Source: Parcubacteria group bacterium (GTDB taxonomy: Bacteria; Patescibacteriota; Minisyncoccia; Moranbacterales; UBA11712). From it: a stretch of DNA of 64,000 bases. The notes under the pieces are model-generated. The model did not search any database. It was given only the letters and a program-made list of their open reading frames with translations, and was not told where the DNA came from. The stretch spans positions 2,032 through 66,031 of the forward strand of contig JBAZXV010000006.1 of the NCBI GenBank assembly GCA_041659685.1, in the 5' to 3' direction. Position numbers and translations under genes: made by a program. The number at the start of each line of letters is the position of its first letter. Positions within the stretch are counted from its first letter, which is position 1. Positions 14,625-54,632 of the stretch are shown here, one piece after another.

Positions 14625-15146
14625 ATGGAAAAGAAGAAGGCGACAACTAGCGAAGCGGAAAAGCTAGTAAAATTCAATGAAAAAGTTCGAAAATCGGCAA
14701 AGCGTCCGGATCTTCGAGCTGGCGATATCGTAAAAATTCACCGCAAAATTAAGGAAGGCAATAAGGAGCGAGTCCAGGTTTTTGAAGGAATTGTTGTCTC
14801 TATAAAGGGCAAGCAAAGCTCCTCGCCGATGGTAACGGTAAGAAAAATATCTTTCGGAGTCGGGATTGAAATAACTGTTCCTTTGTACTCCCCGGTAATT
14901 TCGAAAATTGAAGCGGTAAAAAGAGCTCAAACGAGGCAATCCAAGCTTTATTATCTTAGAAAGAGAGATTTTCGTCTGTCAAAATTAAAAATGAAAGAAC
15001 TGGATAAATTCGTAGCCAAGGAAGAAGAAATACCTGTTGAGGAAGAAGTATCTTTGGATAGCAATATTAGCGACACGGAAAAAAAGAACAATCCCTTGCC
15101 TGAAGAAGGGAAAAAAGAAGAAGATTCCGGAAAGCATGAAGAATAG
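14625..15146 (+). CDS. rplS: 50S ribosomal protein L19 with K/E-rich C-terminal extension
   Basis: RAGDIVKIHRKIKEGNKERVQVFEGIVVSIKG matches the L19 core; about 55 aa acidic/basic tail. Confidence 0.85.
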   Translation: MEKKKATTSEAEKLVKFNEKVRKSAKRPDLRAGDIVKIHRKIKEGNKERVQVFEGIVVSIKGKQSSSPMVTVRKISFGVGIEITVPLYSPVISKIEAVKRAQTRQSKLYYLRKRDFRLSKLKMKELDKFVAKEEEIPVEEEVSLDSNISDTEKKNNPLPEEGKKEEDSGKHEE

Positions 15147-15173
15147 CCAAAAATTAGAGTGGAAAAATTTTAA

Positions 15174-15257
15174 GCCGTGGTGCCGGAATCGGTAGACGGG
15201 CCAGCTTGAGGGGCTGGTGTCCATAAGGACGTGGGAGTTCGAGTCTCCCCCACGGCA
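15174..15257 (+). tRNA. tRNA-Leu (anticodon GAG)
   Basis: Acceptor GCCGTGG/CCACGGC; anticodon stem CCAGC/GCTGG with loop TTGAGGG; long variable arm; T-loop TTCGAGT. Confidence 0.8.
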
Positions 15258-15259
15258 CC

Positions 15260-15333
15260 TCGAACGGGAAAGGGGTCGGGAAAACGGGAGTTTCCCCGTG
15301 GCGGAAGAATTGAAACCGAGGGGTTTCAAAGAG
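15260..15333 (+). repeat. tRNA-associated ~74-bp repeat, copy 1 (TCGAACGGGAAAGGGGTCGGGAAAACGGGAGTTTCCCCGTGGCGGAAGAATTGAAACCGAGGGGTTTCAAAGAG)
   Basis: Starts 2 nt after the tRNA-Leu discriminator; contains an 8-bp hairpin TTGAAACC-GAGG-GGTTTCAA. It is followed at 15351-15370 by a duplicated 3' fragment of tRNA-Leu (GAGAGTCTCCCCCACGGCAC). Confidence 0.85.
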
Positions 15334-15371
15334 GCGTGAAGCGACGAAGTGAGAGTCTCCCCCACGGCACC

Positions 15372-15405
15372 TCGAACGGGAAAGGGGTCGGGAAAACGGG
15401 AGTTT
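15372..15405 (+). repeat. tRNA-associated repeat, truncated copy 2
   Basis: Identical first ~33 nt (TCGAACGGGAAAGGGGTCGGGAAAACGGGAGTT), then diverges; follows the duplicated tRNA-Leu 3' fragment. Confidence 0.7.
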
Positions 15406-15483
15406 TACCTCGGAGAAAGGTATCTGAAAGGGAATATTGATAACAATATTTATTTTTTTGGACAGTATTTTGAATTAATAAGC

Positions 15484-15557
15484 GGGCGCGTAGCTCAGTT
15501 GGTTAGAGCATCTGTCTTACAAACAGAGGGTCAGAGGTTCGATTCCTCTCGCGCCCA
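15484..15557 (+). tRNA. tRNA-Val (anticodon UAC)
   Basis: GGGCGCGTAGCTCAGTTGGTTAGAGC...; anticodon stem TCTGT/ACAGA with loop CTTACAA; T-arm GGTTCGATTCC; acceptor 3' CGCGCCC-A. Confidence 0.85.
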
Positions 15558-15558
15558 C

Positions 15559-15632
15559 TCGAACGGGAAAGGGGTCGGGAAAACGGGAGTTTCCCCGTGG
15601 CGGAAGAATTGAAACCGAGGGGTTTCAAAGAG
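15559..15632 (+). repeat. tRNA-associated ~74-bp repeat, copy 3
   Basis: Identical to copy 1; followed at 15633-15663 by a duplicated 3' fragment of tRNA-Val (CGAGGTTCGATTCCTCTCGCGCCCAC). Confidence 0.85.
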
Positions 15633-15666
15633 CGCAGCGAGGTTCGATTCCTCTCGCGCCCACATT

Positions 15667-15705
15667 GCCGGGCTAGCTCAGTCCCGCCGGGGGCGGGCAG
15701 GGTCC
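15667..15705 (+). pseudogene. tRNA-like chimera: 5' acceptor/D-arm of tRNA-Phe fused to a CCCGCC...GGCGGGCAGGGTCC GC-hairpin module
   Basis: GCCGGGCTAGCTCAGT is identical to the tRNA-Phe 5' end, then CCCGCCGGGGGCGGGCAGGGTCC. No anticodon arm or T-arm. A related module occurs at 34967-35025. Confidence 0.5.
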
Positions 15706-15753
15706 GAGCAGAGGACTTGAGTTTAAAGTAAAATTAACATCCGAATAATTCTA

Positions 15754-15825
15754 GCCGGGCTAGCTCAGTGGTAGAGCAGAAGACTGAAAATCTTTGTGTG
15801 CCCAGTTCGATTCTGGGGCCCGGCA
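15754..15825 (+). tRNA. tRNA-Phe (anticodon GAA)
   Basis: GCCGGGCTAGCTCAGTGGTAGAGC; anticodon stem GAAGA/TCTTT with loop CTGAAAA; T-arm CCCAGTTCGATTCTGGG; discriminator A. Confidence 0.85.
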
Positions 15826-29937: not shown

Positions 29938-31569
29938 ATGATTAGCAAAATTCCTAAGCCAATCGTCGAAATTATCCAAAAACTCGAAATGGCCGGTTTT
30001 GAGGCTTTTGTCGTGGGCGGGTGCGTGCGAGACCTTCTTATGGATGTTGAGCCGAAGGATTGGGACGTGACGACGATTGCGAAGCCGGAAGAAATTGTGA
30101 AAATATTTCCAGATAGTTTTTATGAAAATAAGTTTGGGACTGTTGGGGTAAAGATTAGGAATTATGAATTAGGAATTATGAATTATGGAGATAAAGAGGG
30201 AATAAGCGTGGTTGAAGTGACGACCTATCGCGTTGAGTCGAAATATTCTGACAAGAGGCATCCGGATGAGGTGAAGTTCGCGAAGACGCTGGAAGAAGAT
30301 TTGAGCCGGAGAGACTTTACAATTAACGCTCTCGCGTTAAAAATATCCAATATCCAATATCTCCCCCTACGGGGGACCACCCGCAGGGTGGCAATATCCA
30401 ACAAAATCTCAAAATTTAAATCTCAAAATACTAAATACCGGACACTAGATGCTAAATACGAGATTATTGATTTGTATGACGGGCAAAAGGATCTCCAAAA
30501 GAAAATCATTCGCGCGGTGGGGGATCCGGATGAACGCTTTGACGAGGACGCGCTTCGAATGATGCGGGCGGTGCGGTTTGCGGTGACGCTCGGAGGAGAC
30601 ATTGCCGTTAAGAAAACCGATGGTCCAAGAAAATTGAATGAAAAACTTCCGTTTGAAATCGAAGAGAAAACCAAAAAGGCAATTGCAAAAAACGCTAAGA
30701 ATTTGAAATATATCGCTCTTGAAAGGATCCAGGATGAGCTTAATAAAATTCTGGTTTCGGATTTTGCCGCTGAAGGAATTGAATTATTAAGAGAATTGAA
30801 ACTGCTTCAATATGTCATTCCCGAACTCGAAAGAGGATACGGAGTGGGACAAAACCGCCATCACATTTACACTATTTATGAACATTTGATTCTTTCGCTC
30901 AAAAATTGTCCTTCGAAAAAAATTGAAGTGCGCCTGGCGGCTCTTCTTCATGATATCGCAAAACCGGAAACAAAGAGGGGCGAGGGCGCATATTCGACGT
31001 TCTATAACCACGATCATGTCGGAGCGCGGGTGGCCGAGAAAATTTTGCGACGGCTGAAATATTCAAACGACGCTATTCAGAAAGTCAGGCTGCTCGTTGA
31101 CCACCATATGTTTTATTACAACGTTGACGAAGTGGGTGCCTCAAGCGTGCGGCGGCTTGTTCAAAAAGTGGGGCTTGAAAATATCGATGATCTTATTGAT
31201 CTTCGCGTCGGCGATCGGCTGGGGTCGGGAGTTCCAAAGGCTGTGCCGTATAAACTCCGCCACTTCAAGTATATGGTGGATAAAGTTTCGAGCGACCCGC
31301 TTTCGGTTAAAATGCTCAAAGTGGACGGCAATGACCTCATGAAAGAGCTTAAGCTTGAACCCGGTCCGAAAATCGGCGCCGTTTTAGACGTTCTCCTTTC
31401 AGAGGTTATTGAAAATCCAAATGAAAATAAGAAGGAAATATTGCTGAAGAGAGCAAAAAAATTATCGGAAGAAAATTTGCCAAAACTTCGCGAAATGGCG
31501 AAGGAAAAAATTGAAGAAAAAAAAGAGGAGGAAGATAAGGAAATTAAGAAAAAATATTGGGTGAAGTGA
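29938..31569 (+). CDS. cca: CCA-adding tRNA nucleotidyltransferase with HD domain; carries an in-frame ~35-aa insertion that contains a genomic repeat
   Basis: 543 aa; Pol-beta head GGCVRDLLM; RDFTINALAL then inserted segment KISNIQYLPLRGTTRRVAISNKISKFKSQNTKYRTLDAKYEIIDLYDG before the usual GQKDL; HD domain LHDIAKP; K/E-rich tail. Confidence 0.75.
   Translation: MISKIPKPIVEIIQKLEMAGFEAFVVGGCVRDLLMDVEPKDWDVTTIAKPEEIVKIFPDSFYENKFGTVGVKIRNYELGIMNYGDKEGISVVEVTTYRVESKYSDKRHPDEVKFAKTLEEDLSRRDFTINALALKISNIQYLPLRGTTRRVAISNKISKFKSQNTKYRTLDAKYEIIDLYDGQKDLQKKIIRAVGDPDERFDEDALRMMRAVRFAVTLGGDIAVKKTDGPRKLNEKLPFEIEEKTKKAIAKNAKNLKYIALERIQDELNKILVSDFAAEGIELLRELKLLQYVIPELERGYGVGQNRHHIYTIYEHLILSLKNCPSKKIEVRLAALLHDIAKPETKRGEGAYSTFYNHDHVGARVAEKILRRLKYSNDAIQKVRLLVDHHMFYYNVDEVGASSVRRLVQKVGLENIDDLIDLRVGDRLGSGVPKAVPYKLRHFKYMVDKVSSDPLSVKMLKVDGNDLMKELKLEPGPKIGAVLDVLLSEVIENPNENKKEILLKRAKKLSEENLPKLREMAKEKIEEKKEEEDKEIKKKYWVK
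30360..30401 (+). repeat. Twin-hairpin ~42-bp repeat (TCTCCCCCTACGGGGGACCACCCGCAGGGTGGCAATATCCAA), copy inside the cca coding sequence
   Basis: Two adjacent hairpins CCCCC-TAC-GGGGG and CCACCC-GCA-GGGTGG; flanked by AATATCCAA direct repeats. A second copy lies at 39702-39743. Confidence 0.8.
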
Positions 31570-50057: not shown

Positions 50058-50247
50058 ATTATTACTTGGCTTAAGATAAACTACCTCGCGTTTTTTCTGT
50101 GCGAGGGAATCGCAAACCATCCTCTTTTCAGGATGGTTTGCATTATCAATTGCCGAACTGAAGCGGACGGTTATTCGCTCGGCAGGAATTAGAGACCGGC
50201 CAGGTCATTGCCAGGATAACAATTTTCCAATAGGATATAAAAGTGTC

Positions 50248-50318
50248 CGGGCTGTCGTATACCGGTAGTACGCATGCTTTGGGAGCATGTCGACTGGGTT
50301 CAATTCCCAGCAGCCCGA
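50248..50318 (+). tRNA. tRNA-Pro (anticodon UGG)
   Basis: Acceptor CGGGCTG/CAGCCCG; anticodon stem CATGC/GCATG with loop TTTGGGA; T-arm CTGGGTTCAATTCCCAG. Confidence 0.75.
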
Positions 50319-50320
50319 AA

Positions 50321-50393
50321 TCGAACGGGAAAGGGGTCGGGGAAACGGGAGTTTCTCCGGGGTGGAAGTATTGAAACCGAAAGGTTTCAAGGA
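50321..50393 (+). repeat. tRNA-associated ~74-bp repeat, copy 4 (variant TCGAACGGGAAAGGGGTCGGGGAAACGGGAGTTTCTCCGGGGTGGAAGTATTGAAACCGAAAGGTTTCAAGGA)
   Basis: Begins 2 nt after tRNA-Pro; hairpin stem TTGAAACC/GGTTTCAA is preserved with loop GAAA. Followed by hairpin CCGCCAGATGGCGG and a duplicated tRNA-Pro 3' fragment (ATTCCCAGCAGCCCGAAA, 50418-50436). Confidence 0.85.
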
Positions 50394-50471
50394 TCCGCCA
50401 GATGGCGGAAACGTGAAATTCCCAGCAGCCCGAAATAAGAAGAAATAGTAAATAATAAGAGTATTCGCGCT

Positions 50472-50816
50472 ATGATCGAAGATGGATCAGGCTTTGAGAA
50501 CAAGGATATCGGTTACAGAGCGGAAATCAGGCTTAGATTTGTGAAAGAGCTTGCTTGGAAGCTTCAATCGGCTAAAATTTGTTTTGATGCGTTAGAGCGA
50601 AAACCGCACGATGAATCACTGAGAGCGGATCTTGAAAACCGCAGAAAAGAATTTGCGGAGGCCGTCGATAGGTTCATTGAGGAAGAGCGCAGCCGCCCGA
50701 CTGTCAAGATAAACGCGGCATCCCTTTCGAAGCTGAAGGAATACTGCGAATTCAGCTGGGAAGAGGGAGAACGTCTTAAGGAATTAATGAGGAATGTTTC
50801 CGAGATGGCAAATTGA
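50472..50816 (+). CDS. Hypothetical protein
   Basis: 114 aa helical protein located between two tRNA-repeat units. Confidence 0.35.
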   Translation: MIEDGSGFENKDIGYRAEIRLRFVKELAWKLQSAKICFDALERKPHDESLRADLENRRKEFAEAVDRFIEEERSRPTVKINAASLSKLKEYCEFSWEEGERLKELMRNVSEMAN

Positions 50817-50874
50817 CGCGAGCGGTGGGAGAGAGTTTACTATATGTCTGGACTCCTATAATATAAAAATACCT

Positions 50875-50946
50875 GCGGGTGTTGTATAATGGCTATTACA
50901 TCAGGTTTCCAACCTGAGGACGAGGGTTCGATTCCCTTCACCCGCT
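50875..50946 (+). tRNA. tRNA-Gly (anticodon UCC)
   Basis: Acceptor GCGGGTG/CACCCGC with discriminator U; anticodon stem TCAGG/CCTGA with loop TTTCCAA; T-loop TTCGATT. Confidence 0.8.
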
Positions 50947-50947
50947 C

Positions 50948-50988
50948 ACTGAAACGAAAAATCTCCTTAAGGGGATTTTTTGTTTTGC
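50948..50988 (+). terminator. Rho-independent terminator after tRNA-Gly (ATCTCCTTAAGGGGATTTTTTG)
   Basis: Hairpin plus T-run. A 34-nt segment including it (50946-50979) is repeated at 52321-52354. Confidence 0.65.
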
Positions 50989-51006
50989 TGAATATGAGGG
51001 TGGGAA

Positions 51007-51080
51007 TCGAACGGGAAAGGGGCCGGGGAAACGGGAGTTTCTCCGGGGTGGAAGTATTGAAACCGAAAAGTTTCAAGGAG
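51007..51080 (+). repeat. tRNA-associated ~74-bp repeat, copy 5
   Basis: TCGAACGGGAAAGGGGCCGGGGAAACGGGAGTTTCTCCGGGGTGGAAGTATTGAAACCGAAAAGTTTCAAGGAG; followed by hairpin GCGAAGCGACGTTCGCTTC and a duplicated tRNA-Gly 3' fragment (CCCTTCACCCGCTCAG, 51097-51113). Confidence 0.85.
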
Positions 51081-51356
51081 CGAAGCGACGTTCGCTTCCC
51101 TTCACCCGCTCAGTTTTCGAAAAATTCAAATCAAGGCTTTCACAAAACTTTTTCCAGTTCTGACCAAAAAATTATTTTCACAAAAATTGGCTTGCTTGAT
51201 CCCTTTTTTGTGTGAATTTTCTTCATATTTAAGGCAAAATATCTCCTCAAAAACTTGGTTCTAGCTGTGTGCCCTTGCTTCTGTCGAACTTACGGAAGCA
51301 CGACTTGACAAAAATAGTGAATAGAGTATGATAATAGTATAATATTCACTAAAAAT

Positions 51357-52247
51357 ATGCCAGTGACTCGTCCTATCAAAAACCACATTCAGGCCTTGAA
51401 AAAACAGTATGATATCCTCAAAAAAGGCAAAGATTCGCTTTTGAATTTGATCGACCAGACCGAAATTCCGGAAAGCGTCTACAATTCAAATGCTATCGAA
51501 AATTCAACTTTGACATTCAAAGAGACGGAGAAAATACTTTTGGAGATGGAAATGTCTCGCGATGTCAGTGTCAGGGAAGTATACGAAGCCAAAAATCTGG
51601 CTCGCGTCATGGATTACATTAAGAAAAAGTCGGAAGAATCGGAAATCAATAGGGAGCTGATTCTTCTGCTTCATCAAATGCTTATCGGTGGCATTGATGA
51701 TAATATTTCCGGACGGTTCAGAAATACAGGCGAGTATGTTCGAGTGGGAACACATATCGCGCCGCCTCCAGAAAAAGTGAGCAGTATGATTGCGGTGATA
51801 ATAAATCAATATGTGAGTGACAAGGAAAAATATTTTCTCGATAAAATTTCCCTATTTCACCTTGATTTTGAAACTGTCCATCCGTTTTGTGACGGCAATG
51901 GCCGAATTGGCAGAGCGCTGATGTGCTATCAGCTGGTTCAATTAGGCTATCCGCCGATAATTATCCGTGATAAAGAAAAAGGAAATTACTATAATGCTTT
52001 TGGCGAGTACAGATTCAAAAAGAATACCAAGCCAATGGAAAAAATAGTTGCTCTTTCTGTGATGGAATCTCTGCACAAACGCATAGCCTATCTTTCCGGA
52101 GAAGAAATCATTACCTTGTCCGATTATGCTAAAATAAAAAACAAAAAAGCGCCAGCCTTGTTCAACGCGGCGAAGCGCCAAAACATTCCTGCTTTTCGGG
52201 AAAGGGGAGTTTGGAAAATCAGTTCCGATTGGAAAGATAGCAAATAA
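51357..52247 (+). CDS. Fic/DOC-family protein (putative AMPylase or related nucleotidyl/phosphocholine transferase)
   Basis: 296 aa; Fic active-site motif HPFCDGNGRIGRALM. Confidence 0.85.
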   Translation: MPVTRPIKNHIQALKKQYDILKKGKDSLLNLIDQTEIPESVYNSNAIENSTLTFKETEKILLEMEMSRDVSVREVYEAKNLARVMDYIKKKSEESEINRELILLLHQMLIGGIDDNISGRFRNTGEYVRVGTHIAPPPEKVSSMIAVIINQYVSDKEKYFLDKISLFHLDFETVHPFCDGNGRIGRALMCYQLVQLGYPPIIIRDKEKGNYYNAFGEYRFKKNTKPMEKIVALSVMESLHKRIAYLSGEEIITLSDYAKIKNKKAPALFNAAKRQNIPAFRERGVWKISSDWKDSK

Positions 52248-52320
52248 GAAAAGGATAAAAAAATATCTTAGCCAAGCATCTTTTCCATAAATCCGGTTCT
52301 AACCGCGTGTACTAGTCAGT

Positions 52321-52354
52321 TCACTGAAACGAAAAATCTCCTTAAGGGGATTTT
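52321..52354 (+). repeat. Direct repeat of the tRNA-Gly 3' flank and terminator (TCACTGAAACGAAAAATCTCCTTAAGGGGATTTT)
   Basis: 34 of 34 nt identical to 50946-50979. The two copies bracket repeat copy 5, the tRNA fragment and the Fic gene. It also acts as a terminator between convergent genes. Confidence 0.8.
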
Positions 52355-52376
52355 CATTTCTGTAGCAAGCACTAAG

Positions 52377-52631
52377 TCATTTTCTTATCAATTCTTTCAA
52401 CTCCTTATATTCCTTGCTTTTATCAATTATTTCTTGAAAATATTTATTGCTTTTCCAATATACTTTATATGCATTCGCACTAGATCTTGAAGAAATGATT
52501 CTGTAAGTTTTGTCTATAATTTCAAGCGCGCAATAATTATCAACTGCGACGGCGACACCGGGAGTCTTTTTCATCATTTTTTTCAAATCAGCTTTTCTGT
52601 GTATCTGCGTGTCGTAATGAAGATTAAACAT
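52377..52631 (-). CDS. Hypothetical protein
   Basis: 84 aa ORF convergent with the Fic gene. Confidence 0.35.
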   Translation of the reverse strand: MFNLHYDTQIHRKADLKKMMKKTPGVAVAVDNYCALEIIDKTYRIISSRSSANAYKVYWKSNKYFQEIIDKSKEYKELKELIRK

Positions 52632-52685
52632 CCTGGCTTTTTCCTGATATAATTAAAGCGATCAGTAAGGCTTTAGATTAATATT

Positions 52686-53723
52686 ATGAAAAGAATGGAA
52701 TTTCGTGCAGGCGAAGAATCTTTACCTGACAAAGCAGCGAAAAAAAATGCCAGTGGAGCTGATCTGAGTCCCTTCAAGGAAGGGGCGGTAGGGAAAAGTA
52801 TTTCTGAAGGTTCGCATGCGAATATTCATGAGATAAACAAGCCAAGAGAGGGTTTTCCGGATAGGATAGTTAAAATCGGGAAAACGGATGGTTATACGCC
52901 GCCTCTTTTAAGCGATAAACTGCGAATCAAATTTTCCAGAAAAAGAGTCAGTGACGCCTTGGTTAAGCTGTTCGGGCCGAGATTTCAAATTCATCCGGAC
53001 CAGGATTTTATTAAAAACGGAGTGGCGGAATACTTAATCATGAGGGAATATTTTGGGCATGACGGAAGAGAAGATAAAAATACCAGCCAAAAAAATCGCA
53101 GAGAATTATTGGCTTCGCTGGAGGATCATGGCAACCCATTCTATAAAGAGATGGCGTGCGTTCTCGGCGATAACGGATTAATTGCTGAAACCATCCAAGT
53201 TCTCAAAAATCACCAGCATGATAATTTTCTTCCTGAGGAGCAAACAATTATCGGCCATCCGCCCAATGCAGTTCATGGACAGGCGGGGAGTTTCCGGGCC
53301 AGGGGCGAGAAATTGCCGGTCACTTATTATATTTATCAGGAAAAAATCGCCGGTTCAAACACCGTTCCGCTCCGGGAGTTAAGCGACGAGGAACTATTGA
53401 AGTATCCAAAATTAATTGAAAAATTACTTACTTTTGCGATTTTAACCAAAAAAATGTATTTCGACACCGGTAAATTAATTGACACAAGGCCTGAAGAGCT
53501 GGCAAAGCATCCCTTTGAGTGGTTTCAAGAGACGGCTAATATTTTAGTGAACAAAGATGAACAGGAATTATCGTTTACTGACACTCGCTGGCTTTGGGAT
53601 GGGGACAGCCGCGTAGGAAAAGAAGGGGTGAACCTTGTAAAGCATCTTGGGATAAAGTCGGTTAACGGCGCCATAAGGAAATACGCCGGCATGCTAAAAT
53701 CACTGAGGAGGATGCGGTTATGA
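52686..53723 (+). CDS. Hypothetical protein
   Basis: 345 aa; no motif recognised. Confidence 0.4.
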   Translation: MKRMEFRAGEESLPDKAAKKNASGADLSPFKEGAVGKSISEGSHANIHEINKPREGFPDRIVKIGKTDGYTPPLLSDKLRIKFSRKRVSDALVKLFGPRFQIHPDQDFIKNGVAEYLIMREYFGHDGREDKNTSQKNRRELLASLEDHGNPFYKEMACVLGDNGLIAETIQVLKNHQHDNFLPEEQTIIGHPPNAVHGQAGSFRARGEKLPVTYYIYQEKIAGSNTVPLRELSDEELLKYPKLIEKLLTFAILTKKMYFDTGKLIDTRPEELAKHPFEWFQETANILVNKDEQELSFTDTRWLWDGDSRVGKEGVNLVKHLGIKSVNGAIRKYAGMLKSLRRMRL

Positions 53724-53852
53724 TTTTTTTCCGGCAGGGCGCTATTTACTTAACGTCCTGATCCGCCTTTGTTTGCAACGGGAGTATTCTAAAACGCCGG
53801 TTTTATGTCTGTGATATAATTATTTTATGTGATAATTCGCGATTATAGAGCC

Positions 53853-54632
53853 ATGAGAAAATACGGCGTTGATAAAAATGGATTTATTAAATCAGGGGCA
53901 GGTCTTAATGAGATAAAGGCGCCCTTTAAAAAAATCGTTACCGGTTCCAGGCGAGAAATTATCGGTAAATTTGGAGGCAAAATACACAGCATATATATTT
54001 ACGGAAGCGCGGCAACCGGAAAGGCCCGGCCCCGAATATCGGATTTAGATATCCTCGTCGCGTTCAGGAAAAAGCCGACTTCCGAAATTGAAGAACAAAT
54101 TAAGGATCTCCAGAATATATTGTCAAACAAATTTCGGCAGGCGGTTCGCAAAGTCGACATTGTTTCAATTTTTGTTAAGGAAGCAACCGGCGACAAATAT
54201 GGCTGGGGCTGCTTTATAAAACACCTCTCGGTTTGCGTTTATGGAACCGACCTTTCAAAAAATTTACCGAAATTCAAACCGTCAAAAAAAATCGCCTCTG
54301 CATTCAACAGCGATATCGGAAAATGTTTGGATGACACTCTGGAAAAATTAGAGTCTATTTCGGATGACAGGGAAGTTATAAATCTATGCAGGGAAACCAT
54401 GAGAAAAATTGTTCGCGCGGGATTCAGCCTGGTTATGGACCGGGAAGAATCCTGGACTTCTGATCTTGATAAATCCTGCGAAGTATTTTCGAAATACTAT
54501 CCGGAGCAAACTCTGAAAATGAAGAAGGCTCTTGCAATGGCCAAAAAACCGCTGGCGGATAAAAAAACATTAGCGGATTTCCTTAACGGATTTAGATACT
54601 GGCTGACGAGGGAGGCAAATAGAAAGCTGTAG
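53853..54632 (+). CDS. Nucleotidyltransferase-domain protein (AadA/ANT(3'')(9)-like fold)
   Basis: NTase motif IYIYGSAATGKARPRISDLDILVAF followed by a helical C-terminal domain, as in aminoglycoside/streptomycin adenylyltransferase family proteins. ATG at 53853 preferred over the GTG at 53829. Confidence 0.55.
   Translation: MRKYGVDKNGFIKSGAGLNEIKAPFKKIVTGSRREIIGKFGGKIHSIYIYGSAATGKARPRISDLDILVAFRKKPTSEIEEQIKDLQNILSNKFRQAVRKVDIVSIFVKEATGDKYGWGCFIKHLSVCVYGTDLSKNLPKFKPSKKIASAFNSDIGKCLDDTLEKLESISDDREVINLCRETMRKIVRAGFSLVMDREESWTSDLDKSCEVFSKYYPEQTLKMKKALAMAKKPLADKKTLADFLNGFRYWLTREANRKL

Follow-up and report, generated by a model that had tools for sequence, protein, structure and literature searches.

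In a 64-kilobase (kb) stretch of DNA from a Parcubacteria group bacterium (64,000 nucleotides (nt) of contig JBAZXV010000006.1; hereafter the window), the genes for tRNA-Pro(UGG) and tRNA-Gly(UCC) are each followed by a short folded sequence and then by a second copy of their own 3' end. What are these sequences, and how did they come to lie behind tRNA genes? An earlier note on this DNA had assigned both of them to a repeat family whose first cluster lies behind other tRNA genes of the window, and this assignment was borne out by a covariance model. The two elements, designated c4 and c5, are identified by their sequence as members of a Patescibacteria-wide family of elements of about 100-150 nt, which lack an open reading frame (ORF) and are located in tRNA trailers and spacers. 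We propose that the members of this family are structured RNAs that spread among tRNA genes by copying or recombination, with both ends anchored through homology to the T-loop, a general statement to which we give an even chance of being correct.

Five elements behind four tRNA genes

The covariance model, which was derived from 72 copies in other genomes, recognised five core copies in the window (c1 to c5), all of them on the forward strand, and no others. Their scores are listed in Table 1 and compare with 13.7 bits for the best unrelated match. Moreover, five occurrences of a 34-nt 5' motif taken from the first cluster were counted in the window, as compared to 0 in 100 shuffles. The elements are hosted by tRNA-Leu, which carries two copies, one of them truncated, and by tRNA-Val, tRNA-Pro and tRNA-Gly. 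The upstream tRNA of every copy is intact according to ARAGORN and Rfam. The earlier note had put the identity of c4 and c5 to c1 and c3 at about 88 percent, which agrees with the 85-88% obtained over 75 nt; over the same length, c1 and c3 are identical at 74 and c4 and c5 at 72 positions. It had also described a short GC hairpin and a duplicated tRNA 3' fragment after c4 and c5. Indeed, each complete element of the window has a short variable GC hairpin between the core and the tail copy, and an exact tail copy lies 3' of every complete element (17-25 nt; Leu 19, Val 25, Pro 20 and Gly 17 nt). Third copies of the tails of the four element-bearing tRNAs were not found in the window. The incomplete copy c2, which consists of the first 34 core nt, is a tandem, 3'-truncated second unit. 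An inverted arm in front of the core is present in the window only at c5, whereas c1, c3 and c4 are armless, abut their tRNA and are not separated from it by a terminator.

A covarying fold

The fold was evaluated using 72 distinct copies, and two hairpins were tested against 500 shuffles and against shifted registers, namely hairpin A (CGGGAAAAC-GGGA-GUUUUCCCG) and hairpin B (xxxAAACC-GNNN-GGUUUxxx). Paired cells amounted to 97.8%, as compared to 87.7% in the shuffles and 27-62% in the shifted registers, and 0 of the 500 shuffles reached the observed covariation score. In hairpin B, both partners of four pairs are altered in 25-39 sequences, giving up to four pair types, and one pair of hairpin A alternates between AU and GC (16 sequences). 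Thus, the selection on structure that the earlier note had suspected is supported by covariation, but across genomes only. The note had seen it within the window, as compensatory change that preserves the TTGAAACC/GGTTTCAA stem; this stem turned out to be invariant in c1, c3 and c4, and c5 has lost the innermost pair (C.A). The variable segment preceding it is the 3' strand of another hairpin, with A.C in c1 and c3, G-C in c4 and c5, and one G.U.

The unpaired purine-rich junctions, including J1 (GGGAAAGGGGU), are invariant. The middle base of the GGNGGA junction and the fourth base in the loop of hairpin B show covariation (CG in 54, UA in 7, AU in 2 and other combinations in 9 copies), which suggests a candidate tertiary contact (alignment A2 columns 45 and 66; positions 50363 and 50382 in c4). 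The matches to the covariance model are strand-specific, and in single-sequence folds the structure is closed by a helix that the left flank forms with the tail copy where a left arm is present, as in c5. Such a conserved fold, judged by its sequence pattern, is what a folded single strand leaves behind. Between genomes whose genes share about 65% identity, the cores are 85-95% identical. As a separate observation, the invariant stretch GGGAAAGGGGTCGGGAAAACGGG (50327-50351 in c4; A2 columns 9-31; the same part in every copy) fits the pattern of a G-quadruplex, with four G runs and loops of 3, 2 and 5 nt. Since this stretch overlaps hairpin A, two alternative folds are conceivable.

Distribution of the family and its targets

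The family was followed in samples from a species-representative genome collection and from metagenomes; all genomes are metagenome bins, and the loci compared are labelled by L-numbers (L002, L110 and so on). A 23-base core pattern has at least 118 matching stretches in the genome collection, nearly all of them in Patescibacteria; the core is carried by more than 118 Patescibacteria genomes. The core-bearing lineages include Saccharibacteria, Parcubacteria/Paceibacterota, Moranbacteria, Jorgensenbacteria, Berkelbacteria and others, and a few bins are labelled Bdellovibrionales or Oligoflexia. About 85 cores among the matches listed lie 3-77 nt downstream of a same-strand tRNA, and nearly all amino-acid identities are represented. 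The usual gap between tRNA and core is 30-77 nt. The expectation that every copy would sit 1-3 nt past the discriminator base was therefore wrong, and c5 itself lies at a distance of 59 nt.

Six loci are of a different kind, because the canonical core is located upstream of and antisense to a gene for a translational GTPase (typA-like in L002, L003, L089 and L100; lepA-like in L028 and L045). At these loci, the duplicated segment comprises the initial 39 nt of the gene and reaches as far as GTNGAC in the AH(V/I)DHGK motif, and the arm is an inverted copy of it. The two copies of the gene start differ nearly only at third codon positions (29 of 35 differences). Moreover, in all six loci a frame of 50-60 codons begins at the displaced start, crosses the antisense element and terminates 3-24 nt short of the real start; judged by this arrangement, the upstream frame could be translationally coupled to the real gene. 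The target gene is whole in every case, typA and lepA included. These cases imply that a short motif resembling the T-loop (GTTCRA or GTCAAC) serves as the anchor and not the tRNA identity.

The same layout, which consists of a tRNA, a spacer, an arm complementary to the T-loop, a core and a tail copy, is also occupied by unrelated cores of about 55-125 nt, which form at least five further families (Table 1). One of these families starts with AAGGCGACAT and ends with GGGAGAGGC; another one starts with GGGCAG.

Tail copies, inverted arms and boundaries

An exact tail copy of at least 10 nt is present downstream of the core, at about +85 to +130, in 72 loci among the roughly 85 tRNA-linked ones listed. 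In 71 loci, the last 15 tRNA nt, and exactly these, have an identity of at least 0.86 to the tail copy. On the T-loop side of this block it is about 0.6 at three more T-loop bases and at G53/T54 and about 0.3 at positions 55/56, and past the tRNA end it is 0.56 and then about 0.4. The copied block extends from T-loop position ~59 to the last tRNA base. For nearly every tRNA identity, the block starts within the universally conserved T-loop, and by this sequence criterion a generic tRNA feature is supported as the probable anchor. The earlier note had named the generic tRNA 3' end as the common target. The T-loop anchor holds for nearly all identities, but the restriction to tRNA genes does not: by the note's own criterion, the six copies at typA and lepA would count as a refutation, yet they do carry a duplicated gene end.

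The ends of the elements resemble the T-loop as well. The right end reads GT-TCGA, GT-GAGA or GT-GAAA, corresponding to a degenerate T-loop 5' half, and the left end (GGA-NTCGA-AC) is the reverse complement of the T-loop and the first T-stem bases. The duplicated part of the target is of variable length (13-85 nt). In general, the layout is tRNA, a spacer of 0-60 nt that often contains a terminator, inverted arm, core, tail copy and a flank that often contains a second terminator.

Inverted tail copies of at least 9 nt were found within 130 nt downstream of 56 of 84 core-bearing tRNAs and in 0 of 201 upstream control regions. A first permutation test of the pairing between arm and tail was uninformative because the generic T-loop part is common to all copies, and it was replaced by register-based and exact-match tests. 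In the register-based test, pairing beyond the generic T-loop part, with at least six contiguous pairs, was observed in 26% of the copies as compared to 5% of permuted pairs. The arm may span the whole acceptor strand, as it does in L101 (15/15). An arm without a following core occurs only in truncated second units (L060 and L038). Two other views of the arm were rejected. The unit is not a tRNA minihelix with an insertion in the T-loop, as the left arm does not correspond to the tRNA's own 5' strands but is the reverse complement of the tail with its T-loop. Likewise, the arm does not pre-exist at tRNA loci: among 13 tRNAs with a long inverted arm and without a canonical core, the nine clearest carry another core and a tail copy, and the remaining four mostly have a diverged or non-canonical core.

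The tail follows a lineage-specific change of the acceptor in both copies, as is illustrated by the syntenic tRNA-Gly(GCC) loci L061 and L094 (TAGCC vs. TACCC). The tail stays identical to the tRNA while the adjoining flank decays; therefore, it must be either constrained or repeatedly renewed.

Gain, loss and duplicated flanks

The occupancy of orthologous sites is variable, and elements are gained and lost at tRNA tails. For instance, locus L110 is syntenic with the first cluster of the window (L19, tRNA-Leu(GAG), tRNA-Val(UAC), element, tRNA-Phe and tRNA-Gly(GCC)), its genes showing about 65% nucleotide identity to the window. Its tRNA-Leu site is empty and its tRNA-Val site is filled. The element behind tRNA-Val is a bare core that lacks arm and tail copy and lies exactly between two tRNAs. 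For the second locus, 80 metagenomic loci were anchored on the HU gene that adjoins tRNA-Pro. About 60 of them have the order HU, tRNA-Pro(UGG) and tRNA-Gly(UCC), and the two tRNAs are often just 7-20 nt apart. The canonical core is present in 2 of these ~60 loci, both times after tRNA-Gly(UCC) like c5 and never after tRNA-Pro. Tail copies were detected for 13 of 119 tRNAs in the HU-anchored loci, and 11 of the 13 are preceded by a different, unrelated core. L150 and L151 were considered as a pair of empty and filled sites and rejected, as they diverge from tRNA-Gly onward.

Copies within a genome are more alike than copies at the same tRNA of other genomes. L038 and L060 have near-identical cores, including hairpin C, behind the tails of different tRNAs (tRNA-Tyr at L060), and their arms, tails and spacers are locus-specific. 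In L004, two different cores are arranged in tandem with identical arms and tails. Second tandem units end after 0, 2, 12 or 34 core nt (L060, L038, L016 and c2 of the window, respectively). Between the trailer in front of the element and the flank behind the tail copy, the identity is complete in L016 and L060, 93% in L005 and about 70% in L076 and L102, where the terminator stem has undergone compensatory changes. At most loci such a similarity can no longer be detected, yet a terminator hairpin is usually present on both sides. This graded homology indicates that the whole stretch from the T-loop to the insertion point is copied at insertion and that the copy past the tRNA end then decays.

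Proposed origin and spread of the elements

These observations establish the family membership, the fold, the boundaries, the variable occupancy and the duplicated flanks; from them we infer both that the folded strand is an RNA and that it is propagated by template switching or recombination. A unit has four parts. The optional left arm is the reverse complement of the T-loop, the T-stem 3' strand and sometimes the acceptor strand (...GGA-NTCGA-AC). The purine-rich, multi-helix core comprises J1 (GGGAAAGGGGU), hairpin A with its GGGA loop, J2 (GGNGGA), hairpin B and optional extra hairpins. The right end mimics T-loop nt 53-58 (GT-TCGA or GT-GAGA), and the fourth part is the copy of tRNA nt ~59-73. 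In the written strand, most likely an RNA that is co-transcribed with the tRNA, the arm would pair with the copied tail and thereby close the core. The element would spread within genomes to other tRNA genes and, rarely, to the T-loop-like GTCAAC in typA or lepA. Since its termini (TCGAAC...GTTCGA) imitate the T-loop, it could be anchored there at both ends. Copying would include the target from the T-loop to the insertion point, leaving a second tail with its terminator, and because of this re-copying the tRNA would stay intact.

A four-step scheme may account for such a process. A nascent strand that is stalled or broken behind a tRNA gene would snap back on the tail and produce the arm; it would then switch to another copy of the element via the arm homology, so that the core is copied; finally, it would return to its own T-loop and re-copy tail and trailer. 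Repeated cycles would give rise to truncated second units. The scheme would be consistent with the variable outer and fixed inner boundary of the arm, with a duplication whose start is fixed and whose end varies, with the copies truncated at the 3' end and with the existence of several core families. We hold it with less confidence than the general statement.

Several points weigh against our proposal. Pairing of the arm that is specific for the target is clear in only about one quarter of the copies, and c1, c3 and c4 have no arm. The covariation fits RNA and single-stranded DNA alike, which bears on the RNA part of the proposal. In most loci, a terminator-like hairpin separates the element from the tRNA and a promoter is not apparent, so that an RNA product would depend on read-through. 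The similarity of copies within a genome could result from gene conversion among old copies instead of new insertions. Moreover, the template-switch scheme leaves the strong conservation of the core and the origin of the first copy unexplained, and it does not account for the lasting identity of the tail after the flank has decayed, which points to a function of the tail.

Two further routes of insertion were rejected. Reverse transcription of a mature tRNA that stops at the 1-methyladenosine at position 58 (m1A58) would fit the start of the block at nt 59, but no CCA follows the tail copy, young copies include the genomic trailer, truncated copies have lost the 3' end and not the 5' end, and the polarity at typA and lepA is opposite. 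Insertion of the IS200/IS605 type 3' of TTCGA fits the immediate flanks and fails on the inverted arm and the intact tRNA.

Searches for proteins and known families

None of the units contains an ORF. A distant second tail copy was not present in the 8-kb loci, and thus nothing larger is enclosed. Neither an integrase nor cargo lies between the two tail copies in 118 loci, and clustering of about 1300 ORFs from the loci revealed no enriched mobility gene within 8 kb. The commonest neighbours encode RecG-like helicases, which are the most frequent ones (12 loci), ABC transporters, translational GTPases, RluA-type pseudouridine synthases and CCA-adding enzymes. The proteins of the window are housekeeping proteins (GyrA, IF-2, NusA, trigger factor, ClpP, RNase Y, HU, L19 and CCA-adding enzyme), and no recombinase was found among the 30 largest and the neighbouring ORFs of the window that were scanned. 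There was no transposase or parent insertion sequence (IS) sharing the ends of the element in the 118 and 80 loci or in the window, and no TnpB, IscB or Cas effector in the window or enriched near the 118 loci. The core has no match among 2.9 million viral contigs. With Rfam 15, the tRNAs alone reached the gathering score across the whole window, and over 15100-15750 there was nothing relevant up to E = 10; a 15-bit match to a permuted transfer-messenger RNA in a permissive search of the first cluster was discarded as noise. A literature search that included the literal sequence uncovered no description of the element; the article by Nakagawa et al. 2026 (PMC13011429), which deals with group I introns at anticodon position 35/36, is unrelated.

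Alternative explanations and comparison with known systems

Tentatively, the elements may be self-propagating structured RNAs or single-stranded DNAs without a protein of their own, whose arm acts as an internal guide across T-loop positions 58/59 of any tRNA gene or transcript, whose conserved core is catalytic or serves as a handle for a universal tRNA-processing or replication enzyme, and whose insertion copies the tail. It is conceivable to a similar, limited degree that a propagation mechanism or RNA function of a new kind altogether is involved. Mobile tRNA introns, i.e. archaeal T-loop introns and group I introns with their internal guide, are similar in that the site is T-loop nt 58/59, in that the arm is a contiguous complement across it and in that relatives occur at many tRNAs. 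T-loop introns are reportedly found in the archaeal Thermoproteales. In contrast to such introns, the element leaves the tRNA uninterrupted and has no bulge-helix-bulge motif, group I core or Rfam match. Moreover, the element is bacterial, and bacteria do not have the archaeal splicing endonuclease.

It is unlikely, in our opinion, that the elements are non-mobile small RNAs that benefit the host. RNase Z and RNase P would release such RNAs from tRNA transcripts, the tail together with the arm would be a module for processing, stability or recognition, for instance by RNase Z or the CCA-adding enzyme, and the copies would be old paralogues under gene conversion. This would agree with the conservation across phyla, the covariation and the candidate tertiary pair, with an orientation that is always that of the tRNA, and with the order tRNA-Val, element and tRNA-Phe that is common to the window and L110, where the bare core is placed for release by RNase Z and RNase P. 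The persistence of the tail while the flank decays, its tracking of acceptor changes (L061 vs. L094), the streamlined genomes and the gene for a CCA-adding enzyme in the window point in the same direction. However, the occupancy is patchy, with 2 of ~50 tRNA-Gly(UCC) sites and 0 of ~60 tRNA-Pro sites filled in relatives. In addition, truncated and tandem copies, several unrelated cores in the same layout, the antisense placement upstream of typA and lepA, and the terminator before most copies are difficult to reconcile with a host RNA.

We consider it quite unlikely that the elements are miniature remnants of genomic islands or prophages, or derivatives of these that consist of att sites only and are mobilised in trans. 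In this case, a tyrosine integrase would cross over in the T-loop, the two tail copies would be attL and attR, and the core would be what is left of the attP arm region. In favour of this explanation, the 3' part of the tRNA is directly repeated, beginning in the T-loop (71 loci), and a block of this kind is the classic region of identity for integrases with a crossover in the T-loop. Restoration of the target gene is seen throughout, also at typA and lepA, where the differences at third codon positions (29/35) are as expected for a copy imported from another lineage, and the genes following c5 look accessory (Fic, nucleotidyltransferase). Integrative elements that target tRNA genes and cross over in the T-loop, and their derivatives without an integrase (CIMEs), also resemble the family in the many tRNA identities used and in the ability to replace the end of a protein gene. 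In contrast to these, the element has no integrase or cargo, only a folded core of about 100-150 nt and an inverted arm between the repeats, and it duplicates the trailer and terminator of the target and is conserved across phyla more strongly than proteins are. The idea that the duplicated fragment matches an integrase core site also failed, since its length ranges from 13 to 85 nt and a folded core and inverted arm are present but no att arm region. The explanation is further weakened by the lack of an integrase or cargo between the repeats of the 118 loci and of an enriched mobility gene within 8 kb, and by the 2.9 million viral contigs without a match. Furthermore, what lies between the repeats is a folded core with covariation, whose conservation exceeds that of the surrounding proteins, the trailer and terminator duplicated in young copies are those of the target and not element-borne, near-identical cores are found at different tRNAs with locus-specific arms, tails and spacers, and second units are cut after 0-34 core nt.

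A folded single-strand recombination site, similar to CTX-phi attP(+) or integron attC, would be an improbable explanation. The duplex of arm and tail would mimic the DNA of the tRNA gene between the T-loop and the 3' end, and the exchange of one strand by a host recombinase would be made permanent by replication. By analogy with the CTX-phi mechanism, one-strand exchange of a hairpin-bearing circle would predict the order tail, spacer, inverted arm, loop (core) and tail. In common with these sites, the element has a stem that would imitate the target duplex, a strand-specific fold, the order of parts after integration, and arm ends like R''/R' boxes; the inner ends ATCGAAC/GTTCGAT match the attC consensus of these boxes (RYYYAAC/GTTRRRY) at 6 of 7 positions, and the centre varies across the core families while the arms are kept. 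The arm/tail pairing, which would provide a hairpin stem that rebuilds the site, is present in about two thirds of the copies, but c1, c3, c4 and the L110 element have no arms. Unlike that of attC, the centre is highly conserved within the family, and it is multi-helical. There is no cassette ORF or phage genome, and the target is a tRNA T-loop. The trailer and terminator duplicated in young copies derive from the target and not from the element, no integron integrase or candidate recombinase was seen, and circles of 150-200 nt are hypothetical.

Equally doubtful is a guide RNA, in which the core would be a scaffold comparable to TnpB omega-RNA or Cas12 CRISPR RNA (crRNA), the 15-20 nt tail a 3' guide and GTTCRA, the 5' half of the T-loop that all tRNA genes have, the target-adjacent motif, with an RNA-guided nuclease, transposase or repressor encoded elsewhere as the effector. 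Patescibacteria are known hosts of compact RNA-guided systems. The structured scaffold is indeed followed at once by about 16-20 variable nt that match a genomic target beside a fixed motif, several scaffold families share the layout, and the tail is conserved more than the pairing with the arm requires. Nevertheless, no TnpB, IscB, Cas or transposase gene lies in the window or is enriched near the 118 loci, the adjoining intact tRNA gene that the guide matches would itself be a perfect target, the conserved copy at typA and lepA is 39 nt long with coding-like substitutions, and the inverted arm would mask the guide seed.

Finally, the class of REP/BIME, ERIC, Correia, RUP, IS200/IS605-derived PATEs and miniature inverted-repeat transposable elements (MITEs) is similar in that its members are multi-copy, intergenic, ORF-less, foldable, co-transcribed with neighbours and present as clade-specific subfamilies. 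In contrast, the element lacks both a short target-site duplication of fixed size and extended terminal inverted repeats that are its own, a search for a parent IS found none, its flanks are copied from the target in direct and inverted orientation, and it is strictly tied to tRNA tails and present throughout the superphylum. It also differs from a MITE in its ends (TCGAAC...GTTCGA), which are T-loop mimics of 6-10 nt, in the duplication of 13-85 nt and in the inverted part that is derived from the target. Every defined family considered thus departs from the element in at least one defining feature that was tested, and the loosest fit is to the small interspersed structured bacterial repeats. 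The combination of tRNA-tail targeting, a target-derived arm and tail and conservation throughout a superphylum appears to be undescribed.

Features of the loci and neighbouring genes

The coordinates are compiled in Table 1.

Table 1 Positions of the elements, their tRNA genes and related features (window coordinates unless a locus label is given)
Feature	Position	Strand	Remarks
tRNA-Leu(GAG)	15174-15259	+	
Element c1	15260-15352	+	92.6 bits; directly 3' of tRNA-Leu
Tail copy of tRNA-Leu	15353-15371	+	
Element c2	15372-15405	+	47.1 bits; first 34 core nt only; immediately 3' of tRNA-Leu tail copy 2
tRNA-Val(UAC)	15484-15558	+	
Element c3	15559-15638	+	96.8 bits; directly 3' of tRNA-Val
Tail copy of tRNA-Val	15639-15663		25 nt; whole T arm and acceptor 3' strand
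Promoter-like site upstream of tRNA-Pro	50208-50236		
tRNA-Pro(UGG), intact	50248-50318	+	ARAGORN; Rfam tRNA 55.6 bits
Tail copy 1 of tRNA-Pro	50302-50321	+	Last 20 nt; exact match to 50417-50436
Element c4	50321-50416	+	92.0 bits; fold z = -4.0; left end TCGAAC abuts tRNA; J1 GGGAAAGGGGU; right end ACGTGA
Hairpin A of c4	50338-50359		GGGA loop
Hairpin B of c4	50371-50390		
Hairpin C of c4	50395-50408		Variable
Tail copy 2 of tRNA-Pro	50417-50436	+	AATTCCCAGCAGCCCGAAAT; T-loop nt ~57 to 3' end, plus 3 nt
tRNA-Gly(UCC), intact	50875-50947	+	ARAGORN, Rfam
Tail copy 1 of tRNA-Gly	50932-50948		
Segment R, between tRNA-Gly and c5	50959-50981	+	Terminator-like hairpin and T run; by eye, simple terminator scan without call
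Left arm of c5	50998-51012	+	GGGTGGGAATCGAAC; inverted imperfect copy of tail GTTCGaTTCCC..CACCC; 11-nt inverted match; pairs with tail copy 2
Element c5	51007-51095	+	86.3 bits; starts 59 nt past tRNA-Gly end
Hairpin A of c5	51024-51045		
Hairpin B of c5	51057-51076		Innermost pair lost
Hairpin C of c5	51080-51095		GCGAAGCGACGTTCGC
Tail copy 2 of tRNA-Gly	51096-51112	+	TTCCCTTCACCCGCTCA; equals 50932-50948; allowing one mismatch, similarity reaches back to GTTCGc
Unrelated cores, L052	1656-1729 and 1935-2018		
Unrelated cores, L082	513-587 and 3931-4002		
Unrelated core, L018	6768-6842		
Unrelated core, L106	3131-3203		
Unrelated cores, L179, L185, L187, L188			tRNA-Gly(tcc)
Unrelated cores, L125, L158, L191			tRNA-Pro
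Unrelated core, L004			Variant

Some additional observations were made in the surroundings of the elements. The 3' CCA is not encoded in the genes of the element-bearing tRNA-Leu(GAG), tRNA-Val, tRNA-Pro(UGG) and tRNA-Gly(UCC). A gene for a CCA-adding enzyme is located at 29938-31569, and in three other loci an element-bearing tRNA-Arg(TCG) adjoins such a gene. Between c4 and tRNA-Gly (50437-50874), there is an ORF of 114 codons (50472-50816) without a Pfam match and without a tblastn match in 80 related loci. Because of this ORF and the short distance of 7-20 nt that often separates the two tRNAs in relatives, the whole 556-nt spacer between tRNA-Pro and tRNA-Gly looks inserted. The region right after c5 (51357-54632) encodes a Fic/DOC protein, a protein of 345 residues without a Pfam match and a Pol-beta/MNT-type nucleotidyltransferase, all of which look accessory. 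At 51080-51095, at 15338-15344 and in many loci, the variable 3' part of the element contains a GCGAAGC or GCGNAGC motif, a sequence that folds into a mini-hairpin of unusual stability in DNA.

The tRNA-Phe gene next to the first cluster shows peculiarities of its own. Within 15667-15753, a 16-nt copy of the tRNA-Phe 5' end (15667-15682, identical to 15754-15769) is followed by the GC-rich hairpin CCCGCCGGGGGCGGG and by a further tRNA-Phe-like stretch, GAGCAGAGGACT. This region resembles a 5' half that has been displaced and interrupted and now lies just upstream of the intact tRNA-Phe, and a comparable interrupted 5' fragment of tRNA-Leu is present at ~278-330 of L110. In the same locus (606-960), ARAGORN does not call tRNA-Phe, whose anticodon loop seems to be interrupted by about 300 nt of inserted sequence, probably a group I intron.

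Implications for the biology of Patescibacteria

Up to about one third of the tRNA genes in the window carry a non-coding element of 100-150 nt that is better conserved throughout the superphylum than the surrounding proteins. The genomes of Patescibacteria are among the smallest and most streamlined ones of bacteria, and the lineage makes up a large part of bacterial diversity. The elements also have practical consequences. Tail copies and T-loop mimics can mislead the annotation of tRNAs and integration sites, and the repeats break metagenomic assemblies, as is exemplified by a related contig with the same HU protein that ends inside tRNA-Pro. If the elements are RNAs, they would constitute a major uncharacterised RNA family in Patescibacteria. 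If they are mobile, they would spread without an element-encoded protein and without ever damaging their essential target, using the T-loop, the short sequence that is conserved best in all of biology, as a landing mark, which would have a bearing on how tRNA genes became universal integration hot spots. Should the reading as protein-free, arm-guided elements be true, they would represent a new class of mobile element or of T-loop-adjacent guide RNA that comprises several unrelated core families and is specific to the reduced genomes of Patescibacteria.

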